Source: Escherichia coli
Lineage (GTDB): Bacteria; Pseudomonadota; Gammaproteobacteria; Enterobacterales; Enterobacteriaceae
DNA length: 64,000 nucleotides
Strand: one strand, 5' to 3'
Assembly (NCBI RefSeq): GCF_003334305.1
Contig: NZ_QOWS01000021.1
Shown here piece after piece: positions 18,744-48,943 of the stretch. Below the pieces are notes generated by a model that saw nothing but the letters and a program-made list of their open reading frames with translations, had not been told where the DNA came from and did no database searches. The number at the start of each line of letters is the position of its first letter. Positions within the stretch are counted from its first letter, which is position 1. Both the position numbers and the translations under genes were made by a program.

Positions 18744-19289
18744 TCATATTGCCCCCAACATGGTGGTAACCATCGCCATCAATGGACCAGCCAGATCCGG
18801 GTCCACACGAAACATCGACACAATACCTTCACTCATCTCCTTCAGTTTCTGGTGGCGTGGTGCGTTGAGAATGACAGCCTGTTTTGCCTCACTGAGTTCC
18901 TTTTCCATTTCAGCCAACCGAGTCATGAAGCTATCCTGCTCAACCAGGTAACCGCGATATTCCAGCGGTAGTACCGCCAGAATTGCCGGGGTCAGTTCAC
19001 GCACGTTATTTCGGTATTTTTCAGAATCGAATTTGTTATCGAGGAAGCGGAACAGCTTCTGGCGTGCACGGCTGACATCATCAGGGAAATCGATGGTGCC
19101 GCCGCCCTGTGCTCGATACTCATTCACAATGAGTGCGGCAACAACATCCTGATTATCTGCAGCCGACCAGGCGCGGACGGCATCACGGATTTTTTCGTGG
19201 CCTGGCACCTGTTTTGTTTGAGAACGATTTATCACCGCAGTCGGGCTAAATCCGCTAGTCTGTTGGTATGTAAGTGGTTGCATAGTCAT
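18744..19289 (-). CDS. YdaT-family protein in the cII position (probable CII functional analogue)
   Basis: 181 aa. NEYRAQGGGTIDFP... and LTPAILAVLPLEYRGYL resemble recalled Rac YdaT (EEYLRQGGGELPLVP..., LIPAILAILPRELRHRL). Located between cro-like and O. Confidence 0.6.
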   Translation of the reverse strand: MTMQPLTYQQTSGFSPTAVINRSQTKQVPGHEKIRDAVRAWSAADNQDVVAALIVNEYRAQGGGTIDFPDDVSRARQKLFRFLDNKFDSEKYRNNVRELTPAILAVLPLEYRGYLVEQDSFMTRLAEMEKELSEAKQAVILNAPRHQKLKEMSEGIVSMFRVDPDLAGPLMAMVTTMLGAI

Positions 19290-19313: not shown

Positions 19314-19547
19314 TTAGGCGGCAGAATTACTCGCGTTAAACAATGGTGCGAGGTCGGGACGAATATCTGCTGGTTTAATCTTTCCACCAGTGGCTGAGAC
19401 AATTTTCATTACATAGCGGGCATCAATTCCGCCACCGTGTAGCCAACGCCAAACTGTGGGTTGGGCTACACCGCATAGATCTGCCAGTCGTTTTTGACTA
19501 CCTGTAATACTGATTGCGAGTTGAATGGTTTGATTTGTCATTATCAA
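19314..19547 (-). CDS. cro: Cro-like HTH regulator (YdaS family)
   Basis: 77 aa. HTH GSQKRLADLCGVAQPTVWRWLHG. Divergent from the cI-like gene across an operator-bearing intergenic region. The start could instead be Met3. Confidence 0.8.
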   Translation of the reverse strand: MIMTNQTIQLAISITGSQKRLADLCGVAQPTVWRWLHGGGIDARYVMKIVSATGGKIKPADIRPDLAPLFNASNSAA

Positions 19548-19556
19548 TTCCTATTG

Positions 19557-19607
19557 GTATTGCAATGAATGAATAATAGCAATGAGTATTAACCCAAGCA
19601 ATAGCAA
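19557..19607. promoter_or_regulatory. OR operator cluster: three AGCAAT-type motif copies spaced about 20 bp apart
   Basis: GTATTGCAAT 19557-19566, ATAGCAAT 19576-19583, AGCAATAGCAA 19597-19607. The same motif recurs at the PL region (22278-22317). Confidence 0.55.
19573..19601 (-). promoter_or_regulatory. Candidate PR promoter (TTGCTT-17 bp-TATTAT) reading into cro
   Basis: Minus strand: -35 TTGCTT (19601-19596), 17-nt spacer, -10 TATTAT (19578-19573). It overlaps the operator motifs. Confidence 0.55.
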
Positions 19608-19651
19608 AACGTGTTTTGACCATCAATACGCAAGCGTATAAATTAAAACTT

Positions 19652-20344
19652 ATGAAAAAAGAAACTCTTGCTGATCGCTTAAATCTAGCGATGGAACAAT
19701 CTGGAATGTCTCAAGGCGCTCTTGCAAAGGCGTCTGGCGTAGCTCAACCCACAATCTGGAGACTGACAAGCGGCAACGCGCGCGGCTCAACAAAAATTGT
19801 TGAAATAGCTAATGCATTGGGTGTTCGAACAGAATGGCTCTCTTCAGGCATAGGCCCGATGAGAAATGACGGTCAACAATCAGGGAAGCCTGCTGTCAGC
19901 CATTCCAAATACTTCAAAATTGACGTTCTTGATATAGAAGTCAGTGCCGGGCCGGGTGTAATCAACCGTGAGTTTGTAGAAGTTCTACGCTCGGTTGAAT
20001 ACTCGTTTGACGATGCTCGTCACATGTTCGATGGCAGGAAGGCGGAAAATATCCGCATCATTAACGTGCGTGGTGACAGCATGTCAGGAACGATCGAACC
20101 AGGTGATCTGCTGTTCGTTGATATCACGGTTAAATCTTTCGACGGTGATGGTATCTATGCGTTTCTGTATGACGACACCGCCCATGTAAAACGCCTGCAA
20201 ATGATGAAGGATAAGCTGCTGGTTATCTCTGATAACAAGAGCTACTCACCGTGGGACCCGATCGAGAAAGACGAGATGAACCGCGTGTTCATCTTCGGGA
20301 AAGTCATCGGGAGCATGCCGCAGACATATAGAAAGCATGGGTAG
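19652..20344 (+). CDS. cI: cI-like prophage repressor (N-terminal XRE-type HTH + C-terminal S24 LexA-like autopeptidase)
   Basis: 230 aa from MKKETLADRLNLAMEQSGMSQGALAKASGVAQPTIWRL. Ala-Gly cleavage site context (EVSAGPG), GDSMSG Ser motif and HVKRL Lys motif. No SD before the ATG. Confidence 0.9.
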   Translation: MKKETLADRLNLAMEQSGMSQGALAKASGVAQPTIWRLTSGNARGSTKIVEIANALGVRTEWLSSGIGPMRNDGQQSGKPAVSHSKYFKIDVLDIEVSAGPGVINREFVEVLRSVEYSFDDARHMFDGRKAENIRIINVRGDSMSGTIEPGDLLFVDITVKSFDGDGIYAFLYDDTAHVKRLQMMKDKLLVISDNKSYSPWDPIEKDEMNRVFIFGKVIGSMPQTYRKHG

Positions 20345-20473
20345 AAATCAGAACAAAATTATGCACTTCGCTTTTCAGCTTACTGTAGTAAGGCAATAAA
20401 TTAGGCTTGACGTTAGCTATCAGGTGCACAACAATAATTGTTGAATAATAGGTTTTTTTAACTAGGTGATAAC

Positions 20474-21613
20474 ATGGCAGCGGTTGAATTTCAATTGTCT
20501 AGGAAGATGATTGATTGGATAGCAAATTCTCAAGGAGTTTCTATCGAAACTCTTGCTGACCAAGTCATGCCCAAAAAGATTAATAAATTTCTTAACGGAG
20601 TGGTAAGTAAATCCGCAGCAGAAAAACTGGCAAAAATTGGAGGAATCCCTTTCGGTTTTTTATTTCTTGAAACGCCACCAACTCCAGCCAAACCCAAGAT
20701 CCCTGACTTAAGGCAAGCTATAAATAGCCGTGAGTTAGGAAAAGATTTTTTTGATGTTTACTATGATATAGAATATAAACTTGAGTGGTACAAAGACTAT
20801 TTAAGAGAAAATGGTAATGATGATCCACTCGATTTTATTGGTAAATTTAAATTTAATAGAAAATTAAATTATAAGGTTGTTGCTACAGACATAGCAAACA
20901 CAATACATTTTGATATACAAAAAGAGATAAAAAATGTCACTTTTGAGAGCTATTTTTCTAAAGTGGCAAAACTAATAGAAGACACTGGCGTATTAGTTTT
21001 CAAGAATGGTGTTGTGGGTAATAATAATAAAAGAAAACTTGACACGCGAGAGTTTCGTGGTTTCTGTATATCTGATAGCGTTGCTCCGATCATTTTTGTA
21101 AATAGCTCGGACGCGTTATCTGCGCAGGTATTTACATTATTTCATGAGGTGGCTCATCTTTGGCTTGGAGTCGATGGAGTCTCTGGGTGGGACACAGAAA
21201 AAAACATAGAATCTTTTTGTAATAAAGTTGCTGCTGAAATCTTAATGCCTGATAATCTCTTCAAATCTTTCTGGCTTAATGCATCCAGCGATAATAATTA
21301 TTATCGAGTAAAAGAGGTTTCTAAGTTATTTAAGGTTAGTGATTTCGCTTGTGCAATCAAAGCGTTACAATTAGATTTGATAGAAAGAAACACTTTGGAG
21401 ATAATTAAAGATCAAGCTTACAATAAGCCCAAAAAAGAATCCAATGGTGGTTCTTTCTTTAACACATTACCTGTTCGTAACAGTCCAAAACTTACGAATA
21501 TAATAATTTCCAAAGCAATGTCTCAACAATTACCATTAAGGGAAGCAGGCGTACTGCTAAATGTAAAAGCAGATACAGTTGTTGAATTTTATAAAAAACG
21601 AGAATCTCTATGA
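20474..21613 (+). CDS. HTH + ImmA/IrrE-like (HEXXH, COG2856/M78-type) zinc metallopeptidase domain protein
   Basis: 379 aa. HEVAH lies at residues 224-228 (nt 21143-21157) in the context FTLFHEVAHLWLG. The N-terminal ~60 aa are XRE-HTH-like. AGGTGA RBS. AT-rich. Confidence 0.75.
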   Translation: MAAVEFQLSRKMIDWIANSQGVSIETLADQVMPKKINKFLNGVVSKSAAEKLAKIGGIPFGFLFLETPPTPAKPKIPDLRQAINSRELGKDFFDVYYDIEYKLEWYKDYLRENGNDDPLDFIGKFKFNRKLNYKVVATDIANTIHFDIQKEIKNVTFESYFSKVAKLIEDTGVLVFKNGVVGNNNKRKLDTREFRGFCISDSVAPIIFVNSSDALSAQVFTLFHEVAHLWLGVDGVSGWDTEKNIESFCNKVAAEILMPDNLFKSFWLNASSDNNYYRVKEVSKLFKVSDFACAIKALQLDLIERNTLEIIKDQAYNKPKKESNGGSFFNTLPVRNSPKLTNIIISKAMSQQLPLREAGVLLNVKADTVVEFYKKRESL

Positions 21614-22122
21614 TTCATAATGGAAAATTCTTAATTGATAGTAATGTCTTCATAGAGGCAAAAAACTTTGCATATAACTTCAATTATTGCAAAATATTTT
21701 GGGATTTTCTTCTCGCTTTACACATTAATGGTCTGATTTATAGCATTAATGCTGTAAAAAAAGAACTATGTGCAAAAGATGATCCATTGTGTAAATGGAT
21801 TAAAGAAGAGTTACCATCATCATTCTTCGAAGATGAGCATAGTTCAATAGAAAATTATGCAAAGTTAATAAATTGGTCAACTAAATTAGATGTTACCGAA
21901 AAGGCAAAGTTTGATTTTGCAAGCCATGAAAAAGCAGATGCTTTTTTAATAGCCCATGCGATGACACATGGATATACTATTATTACCCATGAGAAACCAT
22001 CCGGTGGCAAACCTAAAAAAAGAATAATGATCCCGGATGCTGCTGCTTCTCACGGCGTTAAGACATTAACACTATATGAATTTCTTCCAAGATACGCTAG
22101 TCATAATTTTTCTTTGAAATAA
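21610..22122 (+). CDS. PIN-like domain protein (resembles the DUF4411 family), candidate toxin/effector
   Basis: 170 aa. N-terminal KFLIDSNVFIEAKN (PIN first acidic residue D10), later EKADAFLIAHA and TIITHEK. The start overlaps the upstream stop (ATGA). Confidence 0.65.
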   Translation: MIHNGKFLIDSNVFIEAKNFAYNFNYCKIFWDFLLALHINGLIYSINAVKKELCAKDDPLCKWIKEELPSSFFEDEHSSIENYAKLINWSTKLDVTEKAKFDFASHEKADAFLIAHAMTHGYTIITHEKPSGGKPKKRIMIPDAAASHGVKTLTLYEFLPRYASHNFSLK

Positions 22123-22127
22123 AACGT

Positions 22128-22154
22128 CCCGGCCACCGTGCCGGGTTTTCTTTT
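22128..22154 (+). terminator. Intrinsic terminator closing the cI-linked operon
   Basis: CCCGGC-CACCGT-GCCGGG followed by TTTTCTTTT. Confidence 0.75.
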
Positions 22155-22277
22155 GCCTCCCCTCATCACACACACCGTTCAAAAAACCACCACAACCCCG
22201 CTTCAGTTATCGCTATGCGATGCAAGTCACAAAATTAATTCTTTTTGCTATCAAATATTTAATATCAAAACACATCT

Positions 22278-22323
22278 AGCAATAGCAATAAGTATTGATA
22301 TCATCAATAGCAATAGCTATTAT
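22278..22323 (+). promoter_or_regulatory. Candidate PL promoter (TTGATA-17 bp-TATTAT) with OL operator motifs
   Basis: -35 at 22295-22300, -10 at 22318-22323. AGCAATAGCAATA at 22278-22290 and ATAGCAATAGC at 22307-22317 (in the spacer) share the OR motif. Confidence 0.65.
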
Positions 22324-22429
22324 CACCATGTCGCAACAACACAACGATACGGCAATCACCTGATTCACCGTTGCGATGACCGCTTAGATCCGCAGCTTGA
22401 ATTTCAGCAGGCTCCGGGGAGTGCGAGGG

Positions 22430-22807
22430 GTGAAGCGGACGCGTGAACGTCGGTGTGACCAGCTGAAATCAACTCAACACTTCATACCTCAGTCGCTTCA
22501 ACGAGGCGGCTTAGTTATGACAACCGGCGGCCATCCACCGCCTGAATACGCGCAGAAGTCTTTATATGTTCAGCAGCCCAGCTTACGGGCAGGAGTTTTT
22601 ATGGTTCATCAACATTACGGAACGCAGACCGTTAATCGCGGTGCGGTCATGCCAGGAATGCTGGTCAAACACAAAGATGGTACCTGGACTGCATCAGCTA
22701 ATTTACGCGGACGGCTTTATCTGCATCGCGGCATCGAGCGCACTTATACCCGTGATTTGCTCGTAGAAGTTTTTCTCGACGGACGCGGTAACGGCCTGAA
22801 TCACTAA
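22430..22807 (+). CDS. First ORF of the PL operon; hypothetical, possibly an N-like antiterminator (Arg-rich N-terminus); start uncertain
   Basis: ORF 22397..22807. The GTG at 22430 has GGAG 8 nt upstream and gives MKRTRERRCDQLKS.... Alternative ATG starts are 22517 and 22601, the latter with a strong AGGAG RBS (68 aa). Confidence 0.4.
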   Translation: MKRTRERRCDQLKSTQHFIPQSLQRGGLVMTTGGHPPPEYAQKSLYVQQPSLRAGVFMVHQHYGTQTVNRGAVMPGMLVKHKDGTWTASANLRGRLYLHRGIERTYTRDLLVEVFLDGRGNGLNH

Positions 22808-25926: not shown

Positions 25927-26269
25927 GGCCTGTCAGTTTCTTAAGATATCCAGACCAACCGCCACCAACTGGATACGAACAGGCCGCCTACAGGCAACAC
26001 GTAAAGATCCAACCAAGCCAAAATCTCCTTACCTCACAACACGGCAAGCCTGCATTGCGGCGCTTCAGTCTCCGCTGCATACTGTCCAGGTGAGCGCGGG
26101 TGATGGCATAACAGAGGAAAGAAAATGTCACTCTTCCGCAGAAATGAAATATGGTATGCCTCGTATTCGCTCCCGGGCGGGAAACGAATTAAGGAATCTC
26201 TTGGCACAAAGGACAAGCGGCAAGCTCAGGAGTTGCACGACAAGCGAAAAGCAGAACTCTGGCGAGTAG
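25898..26269 (+). CDS. xis: Excisionase (HTH, MerR-like excisionase family)
   Basis: [37 protein letters not shown]... lies immediately upstream of int. The frame stays open 145 nt into int. Confidence 0.7.
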
Positions 26270-27288
26270 AAAAGCTAGGGGATTTACCTGATGTCACTTT
26301 TGAAGAGGCCTGCCTAAGATGGCTTGAGGAAAAAGCTGATAAAAAATCTCTCGATTCAGATAAAAGCCGGATTGAGTTCTGGCTTGAACATTTTGAGGGT
26401 ATAAGGCTTAAAGATATCTCGGAGGCAAAGATTTACTCTGCTGTAAGCAGAATGCATAACAGAAAGACGAAAGAAATATGGAAACAGAAAGTTCAGGCCG
26501 CCATCAGGAAAGGTAAAGAACTGCCTGTTTATGAACCAAAGCCAGTATCAACTCAGACAAAGGCAAAGCATCTTGCCATGATAAAGGCCATTCTCCGTGC
26601 TGCAGAACGCGACTGGAAGTGGCTGGAAAAAGCGCCTGTCATCAAGATACCAGCGGTCAGAAACAAGCGAGTCAGATGGCTGGAAAAGGAGGAAGCAAAA
26701 CGCCTTATTGATGAGTGCCCCGAACCACTGAAATCTGTCGTCAAGTTTGCGCTGGCAACTGGTCTGAGAAAGTCGAACATCATAAATCTGGAATGGCAAC
26801 AAATCGACATGCAGCGACGAGTTGCCTGGGTGAATCCAGAAGAGAGCAAATCAAACCGCGCCATTGGTGTGGCGCTGAACGATACCGCCTGTAAAGTGTT
26901 GCGTGATCAAATAGGCAAGCATCACAAATGGGTGTTTGTACATACCAAGGCGGCTAAGCGAGCAGATGGAACATCAACGCCTGCGGTCAGGAAGATGCGC
27001 ATCGACAGCAAGACATCATGGCTATCAGCTTGTCGTCGTGCAGGAATTGAAGATTTCCGTTTCCATGACCTCAGACACACCTGGGCAAGCTGGCTGATTC
27101 AGTCAGGCGTCCCATTATCAGTGCTTCAGGAAATGGGCGGATGGGAGTCCATAGAAATGGTTCGTAGGTATGCTCACCTTGCGCCTAATCATTTGACAGA
27201 GCATGCGAGGAAAATAGACGACATTTTTGGTGATAATGTCCCAAATATGTCCCACTCTGGAATTATGGAGGATATAAAGAAGGCGTAA
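26125..27288 (+). CDS. int: Tyrosine integrase, IntD (DLP12) type
   Basis: 387 aa, [35 protein letters not shown]...; catalytic [10 protein letters not shown]...VRRYAHL. Adjacent to argU. Confidence 0.95.
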
Positions 27289-27303: not shown

Positions 27304-27380
27304 TGGCGCGCCCTGCAGGATTCGAACCTGCGGCCCACGACTTAGAAGGTCGTTGCTCTATCCAACTGAGCTAAGGGCGC
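27304..27380 (-). tRNA. argU: tRNA-Arg (anticodon UCU), argU
   Basis: The reverse complement reads GCGCCCTTAGCTCAGTTGGATAGAGCAACGACCTTCTAAGTCGTGGGCCGCAGGTTCGAATCCTGCAGGGCGCGCCA: 77 nt, cloverleaf-compatible, encoded CCA. Confidence 0.95.
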
Positions 27381-48859: not shown

Positions 48860-48901
48860 GTCATACCACTCGCCTGATTATTTTTAGCTATGTTGGATTT
48901 T

Positions 48902-48928
48902 GCCACGGTTTATACCGTGGCTTTTTTT
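48902..48928 (+). terminator. allDCE intrinsic terminator
   Basis: GCCACGGT-TTAT-ACCGTGGC followed by TTTTTTT. Confidence 0.8.
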
Positions 48929-48943
48929 GTAGTAAATTCAGGT

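Follow-up and report, generated by a model that had tools for sequence, protein, structure and literature searches.

The two-gene cassette described here lies behind the cI-like repressor gene of a lambda-like prophage in a 64,000-nucleotide stretch of Escherichia coli DNA (contig NZ_QOWS01000021.1 of assembly GCF_003334305.1; this whole stretch is called the window below). Its closest described relative is VapBC52 of Mycobacterium tuberculosis (Rv2515c/Rv2514c), of which crystal structures have been reported (PDB entries 9vzy and 9vzz; Singh et al., Nucleic Acids Research, June 2026; PMC13273310). The toxin of that pair, VapC52, is a PIN tRNase that cleaves anticodon or variable loops, and in the complex one VapB52 molecule is bound per VapC52 dimer (1:2 stoichiometry). 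The amino-terminal domain of VapB52 is needed for toxin binding, while its four-helix carboxy-terminal domain covers the active site. Single-stranded DNA (ssDNA) provokes self-cleavage of VapB52 that depends on its HEXXH motif and by which the amino-terminal domain is lost; a conserved 'FR' motif of the linker is the proposed site of the cut. While the protein is inactive, its zinc site, of which E245 is a ligand, is filled by a 'cysteine switch' residue, C229, as in CapP (PMC13273310).

Pairs of this kind had been noticed before by comparison of genomes. DUF4411.1 genes were found downstream of fused HTH-DUF955 genes (Matelska 2017; PMC5499597), and the ImmA or Rosmer antitoxin hub of the NetFlax network was tied to PIN-like toxins (Ernits 2023; PMC10440598). 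Among the RosmerTA systems, which have antitoxins of the ImmA class, are some with validated activity in defence (Millman 2022; Ernits 2023); the toxin RmrT from Gordonia phage Kita depolarises the membrane and is not a PIN nuclease (PMC10440598). As judged from sequence, the E. coli cassette very probably belongs to the VapBC52-type module family, with an M78 antitoxin and a DUF4411 PIN toxin. It is thus not a new kind of system, the family of the pair being already characterised, and a role in defence is plausible.

Homology to VapBC52 and obligate pairing

The cassette contains two open reading frames (ORFs) on the + strand. ORF1 (positions 20474–21613) codes for a protein of 379 amino acids, a putative VapB52-type antitoxin and sensor that RefSeq calls 'ImmA/IrrE family metallo-endopeptidase' (WP_000741702.1). 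ORF2 (positions 21610–22122) codes for a DUF4411 PIN-like nuclease of 170 amino acids, the predicted toxin (WP_000581650.1, 'DUF4411 family protein'). The two frames share an ATGA stop/start at 21610–21613. The cI-like gene stops at 20344 and is followed by a 129-nucleotide spacer (20345–20473) that precedes ORF1. The G+C content of the cassette is 30–36%, that of cI about 46% and that of the Red genes (gam-bet-exo) 50–53%. An earlier note on this DNA had listed the gap after cI, the extent of the two frames, their overlap and their richness in A and T, and all of these were verified; the strings it had quoted, HEVAH at 21143–21157 in FTLFHEVAHLWLG of ORF1, and KFLIDSNVFIEAKN, EKADAFLIAHA and TIITHEK of ORF2, are likewise present.

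A sequence search of the PDB leads to entries 9vzy and 9vzz, in which an 'HTH cro/C1-type domain-containing protein' is in complex with a 'DUF4411 family protein'. Family profiles, built from 51 relatives of ORF1 and 42 of ORF2, match these structures along their full length: the ORF1 profile aligns with VapB52 (9vzy_A) over positions 9–372 of 377 (E 3.7e-23), and the ORF2 profile with VapC52 (9vzy_D) over positions 6–158 (E 1.2e-13). The single-sequence matches are weaker, with E 8e-7 and 7e-6.

The E. coli and mycobacterial modules are composed of the same two families, in the same order and with overlapping genes, and both proteins are homologous over their full length. They share a three-domain antitoxin, a zinc site made up of HEXXH and a Glu, a D-[F/L]-R motif in the linker and the acidic residues of the PIN domain. 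However, the relationship is only a distant one; ORF1 is shorter than VapB52 (379 versus 415 amino acids), the switch cysteine C229 of VapB52 is replaced by Ser237 in ORF1, and the E. coli copy is located in a prophage immunity operon behind cI, whereas VapBC52 is at a chromosomal locus. The earlier note had known of no experimental characterisation of such a pair, a statement now superseded at the family level by the VapBC52 crystal structures, the tRNase activity of the toxin and the ssDNA-triggered self-cleavage of the antitoxin. In our literature search no study of this E. coli pair was found.

When IMG/VR was scanned with the ORF2 profile, 80 loci were obtained. At each of the 78 viral loci with enough upstream sequence (78/78), an ORF1-family gene is located directly upstream on the same strand, with gene overlaps mostly of 4, 1 or 8 bases. 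A scan of one genome per species gave at least 474 loci; among the best 80 of these, at least 74 are paired in the same way, and the others are explained by contig ends or by miscalled start codons. The best 80 are spread over Proteobacteria, Actinobacteria, Chloroflexi, Spirochaetes, Planctomycetes, Bacteroidetes and others, and the DUF4411 toxin family comprises 5,368 clusters at 50% identity (E up to 0.001). The pairing of ORF1 and ORF2 is effectively obligate and the module is an autonomous unit; the earlier note had described DUF4411 as a family that usually accompanies ImmA/IrrE genes.

Predicted structures and active sites

ORF1 was recognised as a member of the ImmA/IrrE (M78) zinc peptidases by Pfam (Peptidase_M78, E 1.2e-13), in line with its full-length homology to VapB52 and with the family named in the earlier note, and by PHROGs (phrog_2439, E 3e-76). 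In PADLOC, the capP model covers the peptidase core (E 9.8e-15), and thirteen RmrA models give weak matches (best E 6e-8, 30 bits), two of which align ORF1 almost end to end although with a weak score (residues 20–314, E 1e-7). A match to the NCBIfam spr1629 repressor/antitoxin family was below threshold (24.6 bits, with a cut-off of 335) and was not used.

The AlphaFold2 model of ORF1 has a mean predicted local distance difference test (pLDDT) score of 89.4. It consists of an amino-terminal helical domain (residues 1 to about 64), a flexible linker, a middle domain of the M78/IrrE type and a carboxy-terminal four-helix domain (about residues 325–379, with the helices spanning 328–378). The top Foldseek matches are CapP (7t5t), IrrE (3dti) and the PprI-ssDNA complex (8sln); the structure library used runs to April 2026 and 9vzy is not among its entries.

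Conservation of individual residues was assessed in 124 distinct ORF1-type and 131 distinct ORF2-type sequences, taken from viral contigs and species-representative genomes. The zinc-binding and catalytic motif HEVAH of ORF1 (H224, E225 and H228; 21143–21157, + strand) is invariant in 124/124 relatives and aligns to HEFVH of VapB52 and to HEISH of IrrE. The third zinc ligand is predicted to be E246, in the IrrE-type ExxCN motif E246-S-F-C249-N250 (21209–21223, + strand), which aligns to EARCN of VapB52 and ETLCN of IrrE; E246 is invariant, and C249 and N250 are each kept in 121 of the 124 sequences. Judged by the model and these alignments, ORF1 is a large three-domain protein in which the M78 zinc-peptidase site is intact.

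Upstream of the peptidase domain, the linker motif D78-L79-R80 (20705–20713, + strand) aligns, in the profile alignment, to the 'FR motif' of VapB52 (F75-R76, in DFRR). D78 is an aspartate in 118 and R80 an arginine in 121 of the 124 relatives. The position between them, a leucine in ORF1, is mostly F, L or M among the relatives, with R in nine viral sequences. At residues 71–90 the pLDDT falls to 71–74, the sole low-confidence stretch of the amino-terminal half of the model, as expected if the motif is part of an exposed cleavage linker.

ORF2 matches DUF4411 in Pfam (PF14367, E 1.2e-37) and phrog_11126 in PHROGs (E 1.3e-67). Its AlphaFold2 model (pLDDT 88.3) retrieves VapC PIN toxins as top Foldseek matches, with probability 1.00 and template-modelling scores of about 0.55–0.65, the best folds being those of M. 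tuberculosis VapC2 and VapC11 and of Shigella VapC. From the family alignment, the catalytic residues are predicted to be D10 (21637–21639), E52 (21763–21765), D110 (21937–21939) and E128 (21991–21993, all on the + strand). Apart from alignment gaps and one E52Q substitution, all four are invariant in the 131 relatives, and N12 is also near-invariant. By these criteria ORF2 is a PIN nuclease of the DUF4411 family whose acidic active site is intact, in agreement with the PIN-like, DUF4411-type protein proposed before. Both family assignments of the earlier note thus hold, at Pfam E values that chance would not give.

Compared with canonical VapBC modules, the cassette has a toxin with the PIN fold and the same acidic active site, and the gene order, antitoxin before toxin with an overlap, is also the same. 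However, ORF1 is a 43-kDa enzyme and not a DNA-binding peptide of 8–13 kDa, and release of the toxin would be expected to occur by regulated self-cleavage rather than by Lon/Clp turnover. CapP, IrrE and ImmA have the same peptidase fold and active site as ORF1, and the CapH/CapP, IrrE/DdrO and ImmA/ImmR pairs share a logic in which proteolysis is switched on by DNA damage or ssDNA. The target of these peptidases is a separate HTH repressor, whose cleavage turns transcription on, whereas in ORF1, by homology to VapB52, protease and substrate would be one chain and the output would be release of the bound toxin. No CapH- or DdrO-like partner gene and no CBASS genes are adjacent to ORF1; the sole downstream gene of the cassette is the DUF4411 gene. 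RosmerTA resembles the cassette in having an HTH and ImmA/M78 zinc-peptidase antitoxin beside a swappable toxin, and it differs in that the RmrA matches of ORF1 are weak and ORF2 matches no RmrT model. Functionally, the module is akin to systems of the RosmerTA class.

An exchangeable cargo slot behind cI

In lambda, rexAB sits after cI and ahead of OL/PL. The same order is observed in the window, where a leftward cro is followed by OR, cI, the cargo, a terminator, OL/PL and the Red genes, as the earlier note had pointed out. The cI-like repressor (19652–20344, + strand), labelled XRE family transcriptional regulator in RefSeq (WP_001295669.1), contains HTH_3 (E 1.8e-6) and Peptidase_S24 (E 1.3e-18) domains and belongs to the backbone. 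The exact operator word AATAGCAAT is found three times in the whole 64 kb, at 19575, 22281 and 22306. The first copy is between cro and cI, within the OR counterpart at 19547–19608, and the other two are just beyond the terminator, in OL/PL (22281–22323, + strand), together with a promoter-like TTGATA-17-TATTAT directed towards kil-gam-bet-exo. The OR/OL layout is confirmed by these sites, which flank cI and the cassette.

The cassette proper, made up of a leader with a candidate promoter of its own, ORF1 and ORF2, extends from 20345 to 22127 on the + strand, as defined by its breakpoints and its G+C content. It is 99.8–100% identical in 33 of 5426 complete E. coli genomes and is always found inside the same immunity backbone. 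The same cI allele is present in 761 E. coli genomes, and the cassette is missing from 728 of these (96%). In sister prophages, the cro/cI side and the kil-gam-bet-exo side are 96–98% identical to those of the window. Compared with five prophages carrying other cargo, the left breakpoint is at 20340–20345, at the cI stop; the right breakpoint is at 22119–22128 in four of the five, at the ORF2 stop and just before the terminator hairpin, while in L006 homology resumes only from 22364.

The intrinsic terminator (22128–22154, + strand, bidirectional) has a 6-bp GC stem and a T-run, with the hairpin CCCGGCCACCGTGCCGGG followed by TTTTCTTTT. Its presence and position agree with the earlier note, but it had been counted as part of the cassette, and, since sister-prophage homology resumes at 22119–22128, it is better assigned to the conserved backbone. 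It is predicted to end transcription of the immunity operon ahead of OL/PL, as an element common to all cargo types.

The cargo of the sister prophages includes a SIR2 protein (PADLOC PDC-S25, E 2.7e-235), a small ORF with a Ser/Thr kinase (PD-T4-6 and mad6 models, E 1e-36 to 8e-49) and a PDC-M11A/B pair (E 3e-133 and 7e-52). A small ORF with a DUF6414 protein (L003, 1745–2744) and a hypothetical protein of 173 amino acids (L007, 2005–2526) also occupy the slot, both with no PADLOC match. Behind other cI alleles, a DUF3037 protein with a HipA-kinase, and a PP2C protein with a kinase, are found. In sister prophages known or candidate defence genes occupy the slot between cI and OL, which makes it a hotspot, and the breakpoints shared with the SIR2, kinase and PDC-M11 cargo support the view that the cassette is swappable cargo in such a slot. 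The DUF6414 and 173-residue proteins are further candidates from the hotspot, and the exact breakpoints should help to find more.

The likeness to lambda rexAB is one of position and transcriptional setting only, after cI and before the immunity terminator and OL/PL. No homology to RexA or RexB was found, and scans of Pfam, PHROGs, NCBIfam and PADLOC gave just M78/ImmA- and DUF4411-type matches. The Stk kinase of the 933W type is also cargo of a cI-PL slot, and sister prophages carry a PD-T4-6-type kinase at the same breakpoints as the cassette. BstA of Salmonella phage BTP1 is reportedly located downstream of a prophage repressor as well. RexA/RexB, Stk and BstA have no sequence relationship to ORF1 or ORF2, and their effector chemistry is different.

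Among GenBank phages, a megablast search with the cassette gave no match and tblastn with ORF2 gave one match only, at 27% identity, to a faecal phage contig without annotation; prophages and uncultivated viral genomes are therefore the only known sources of the cassette. The window integrase (26125–27288) abuts a tRNA-Arg(tct) gene (27304–27380). Strain CV839-06 (L001, 26274–28780) has an identical cI-cassette region in a prophage beside icd, with an integrase of another size. As integrases and integration sites differ, the immunity region and its cassette are carried on mosaic backbones.

Prophage copies of the module are often located behind a repressor gene. After clustering of the IMG/VR toxins at 90% identity, 35 evaluable clusters, or prophage lineages, remained, and 19 of them have a cI-like gene 37–1266 nucleotides upstream on the same strand. 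Of ten such neighbours sampled, nine contain Peptidase_S24 (seven together with HTH_3) and the tenth is a Phage_CI_repr HTH protein. In the species-genome sample just 5 of 80 loci adjoin a cI-like gene; the placement behind cI is therefore a habit of prophage copies and not a property of the family.

This placement, with ORF1 directly behind a repressor gene, brings to mind an ImmA-type anti-repressor, in which ORF1 would cleave the neighbouring cI or another HTH repressor at induction and ORF2 would be an accessory; ImmA/ImmR, IrrE/DdrO and CapP/CapH each involve cleavage of a separate HTH repressor. We regard this as highly improbable. The cI-like protein carries its own S24 self-cleavage domain, a cI of the same accession (WP_001295669.1) is found with DUF6414 cargo and no ImmA gene, and the 728 genomes mentioned above have this cI allele and no cassette, so ORF1 need not act on cI. 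Furthermore, across phyla the partner of ORF1 is DUF4411 and not a repressor, and its homologue VapB52 cleaves itself. An ImmR/ImmA-type anti-repressor pair was rejected on these genomic grounds, namely the S24 domain of cI and the presence of ORF1 in only 33 of the 761 genomes with the allele. The opinion in the earlier note that ORF1 is not obviously needed as an anti-repressor is strengthened by the ImmA-free cI of the same accession and by the scarcity of cI genes near ImmA-DUF4411 pairs in general.

Expression and a possible role in defence

No terminator-like site was found on the + strand between cI and ORF1, so that, as with rexAB, transcription may read through from PRM. In addition, the leader has a candidate sigma-70-like promoter (TTGACG-17 nucleotides-AACAAT, 20407–20435, + strand; 9 of 12 consensus positions in the promoter scan). 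Both hexamers hold their position in the diverged leaders of L022, L023, L027 and L033, behind different upstream genes, which speaks for a promoter carried along with the module; its function is inferred. Over the -10 hexamer lies a perfect palindrome, CAACAAT-A-ATTGTTG (20429–20443, + strand), and L022 and L027 have weaker ACAAT..ATTGT repeats in the corresponding position. The palindrome may be an operator for autoregulation by ORF1. In the distant cassettes L030, L031, L037, L063, L083 and L088 another leader block is conserved, GGAATAATAGGTATAACC...ATTGAC...TAATACTT, about 70–100 nucleotides upstream of the ImmA start and behind different repressors. It could be a second type of leader or promoter of the module.

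On the precedents of VapBC52, CapP and IrrE, the following mechanism can be proposed. In the lysogen, ORF1 and ORF2 would be made from PRM read-through, from the promoter of the cassette itself or from both. One ORF1 molecule would keep an ORF2 dimer inactive, with the amino-terminal domain gripping the toxin and the carboxy-terminal four-helix domain plugging its active site, and ORF1 would probably repress its own promoter at the 20429–20443 palindrome. The peptidase would be activated by a sign that DNA is foreign or damaged, with ssDNA as the likeliest, and would then cleave the linker of ORF1 itself at the D-L-R motif. With the amino-terminal domain lost, the freed PIN RNase would cut tRNAs or other RNA, translation would stop and the infection by a superinfecting phage would be aborted. 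We consider the whole of this scheme, anti-phage role included, to be somewhat more probable than improbable. In its favour are the family membership with the conserved active-site and linker residues, the mechanism known from VapBC52, the effectively obligate pairing of overlapping genes, the lack of a terminator after cI together with the conserved leader, the defence genes that share the slot, the recurrent placement behind cI, the validated systems of the RosmerTA class and the decay of toxin-antitoxin type described below. The guess of the earlier note, a sensor-protease and nuclease module for abortive infection or of toxin-antitoxin type, is a reasonable one.

Several observations weigh against it. 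When VapB52 and VapC52 were co-expressed in Mycobacterium smegmatis, no protection against phage D29 was obtained, while over-expressed toxin alone did protect (PMC13273310), so that defence by an intact module of the VapBC52 family is unproven. In PADLOC-DB 2.0, ORF2 has no match to any model, RmrT included (E up to 1). At the position of the switch cysteine Cys229 of VapB52, which is an auto-inhibitory fourth zinc ligand there and in CapP, ORF1 has S237 (21182–21184, + strand; GVS aligned with GLC), and a serine is present in 113 of the 124 relatives. Activation may therefore be different, or the trigger may not be ssDNA; the switch cysteine is a trait of the member that has been characterised and not one of the family at large, but it bears on the mode of activation. 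The roles of the HTH and the operator also find no sequence-family match in support. Neither ORF1 nor any of 50 relatives (51 members in all) is hit by an HTH family of Pfam, and an hhalign comparison with the neighbouring cI gave a probability of 0.55%. Of the XRE-HTH-like amino-terminus in the earlier note, the helical domain and the homology to VapB52 stand, and it is on these that the HTH claim is based, as the Pfam HTH scan is empty.

Some copies have damaged genes. In ATCC 43886 (L002), an IS1 element with a 9-bp target duplication (21010–21018) splits ORF1 near codon 180, yet ORF2 is intact, with the same protein accession, and is tolerated. Either the toxin is silenced there by polarity, or it is neutralised by an antitoxin fragment, or it is only mildly toxic; this copy, too, counts against the scheme. 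In L019 (IMGVR_UViG_2908572912_000001), 21763G>T turns the codon of the catalytic E52 into TAA in an otherwise identical cassette. In the 14 IMG/VR copies, the other ORF2 substitutions are mostly non-synonymous and clustered at residues 32–40, and the ORF1 substitutions are mostly at third positions; numbers are small and codon effects were assigned by hand.

The E52 nonsense codon and the IS1 insertion in the antitoxin gene look like signs of decay as seen in toxin-antitoxin (TA) modules. They would fit a decaying or silent remnant that has no current function, and the E. coli copies are too alike (at least 99.8%) to reveal purifying selection. Nevertheless, we think a remnant very improbable: neither reading frame is interrupted in the window, nor in most of the copies, catalytic and motif residues are kept across hundreds of distant relatives, and the promoter elements of the leader are kept as well.

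The same decay would also be consistent with a stress-responsive or addictive TA module that has no dedicated anti-phage role. Such a module would slow growth after DNA damage or under other stress, a role put forward for VapBC52 under copper stress and during infection, or would stabilise the prophage through the death of cells that have lost it, and the fact that most members in species genomes are outside recognisable prophage immunity regions (5/80 beside a cI-like gene) favours this. On the other hand, sister prophages fill the slot with known or candidate defence genes, the module is found repeatedly in the lysogen-expressed immunity operon of unrelated prophages, and carriage by 4% of the prophages with this cI fits pan-immune cargo better than a maintenance function. 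A TA module of this kind is a possibility that deserves attention, although we deem it unlikely.

A further difficulty for the anti-phage scheme is that an ssDNA sensor is expected to fire on induction of the prophage itself, and no device for self-immunity was identified. Firing at induction could in principle serve the phage, if the RNase reshaped the host tRNA or RNA pool or killed cells in which induction fails. ssDNA, the only known trigger of the family, also drives RecA-dependent cleavage of cI, and the module has a close and repeated association with cI; yet the same module is common where there is no prophage at all, and cutting of tRNA is expected to hurt late gene expression of the phage itself. 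Such a phage-serving switch appears improbable. It is also rather unlikely, though less so, that the prophage copies, with their conserved serine and their repeated capture into cI operons of unrelated prophages, respond to something else than ssDNA in general, or that gating keeps them from firing at their own induction; an intermediate of replication or recombination, or a superinfecting phage's protein, might then be the trigger. If this were true, the cassette would be a self/non-self-discriminating, lysogen-expressed abortive-infection system that is coupled functionally to the cI switch.

The family is large, and its characterisation dates only from 2026 and comes from a slow-growing pathogen, with no protection by the intact pair against the single phage tested. 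The E. coli copy, with sister prophages that differ only in their cargo, offers a tractable test of the anti-phage role of an intact module. The same system is suited to asking what triggers a protease that has no switch cysteine, and how a sensor of the DNA-damage type coexists with SOS-dependent prophage induction.

Some features of the surrounding region may be added. Beyond OL/PL there is a kil-like gene (22601–22807); no N-like antiterminator gene is present between OL/PL and this gene (22155–22600), and RefSeq likewise annotates none in the identical prophage region. The 276-nucleotide leader past PL folds no better than shuffled sequences (z = -0.89), which gives no sign of a put-like structured RNA. 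On the other side, a cro-like HTH gene (19314–19547) is followed by a gene in the cII position (18744–19289, - strand) that RefSeq names 'toxin YdaT domain-containing protein' and that is kept in every sister prophage examined. When the whole window was searched with Rfam, there was no match near the cassette and none in the leader past PL, while far from the cassette the enterobacterial small RNA STnc480 was identified at 48866–48932 (- strand), with 87 bits, over the gathering score.

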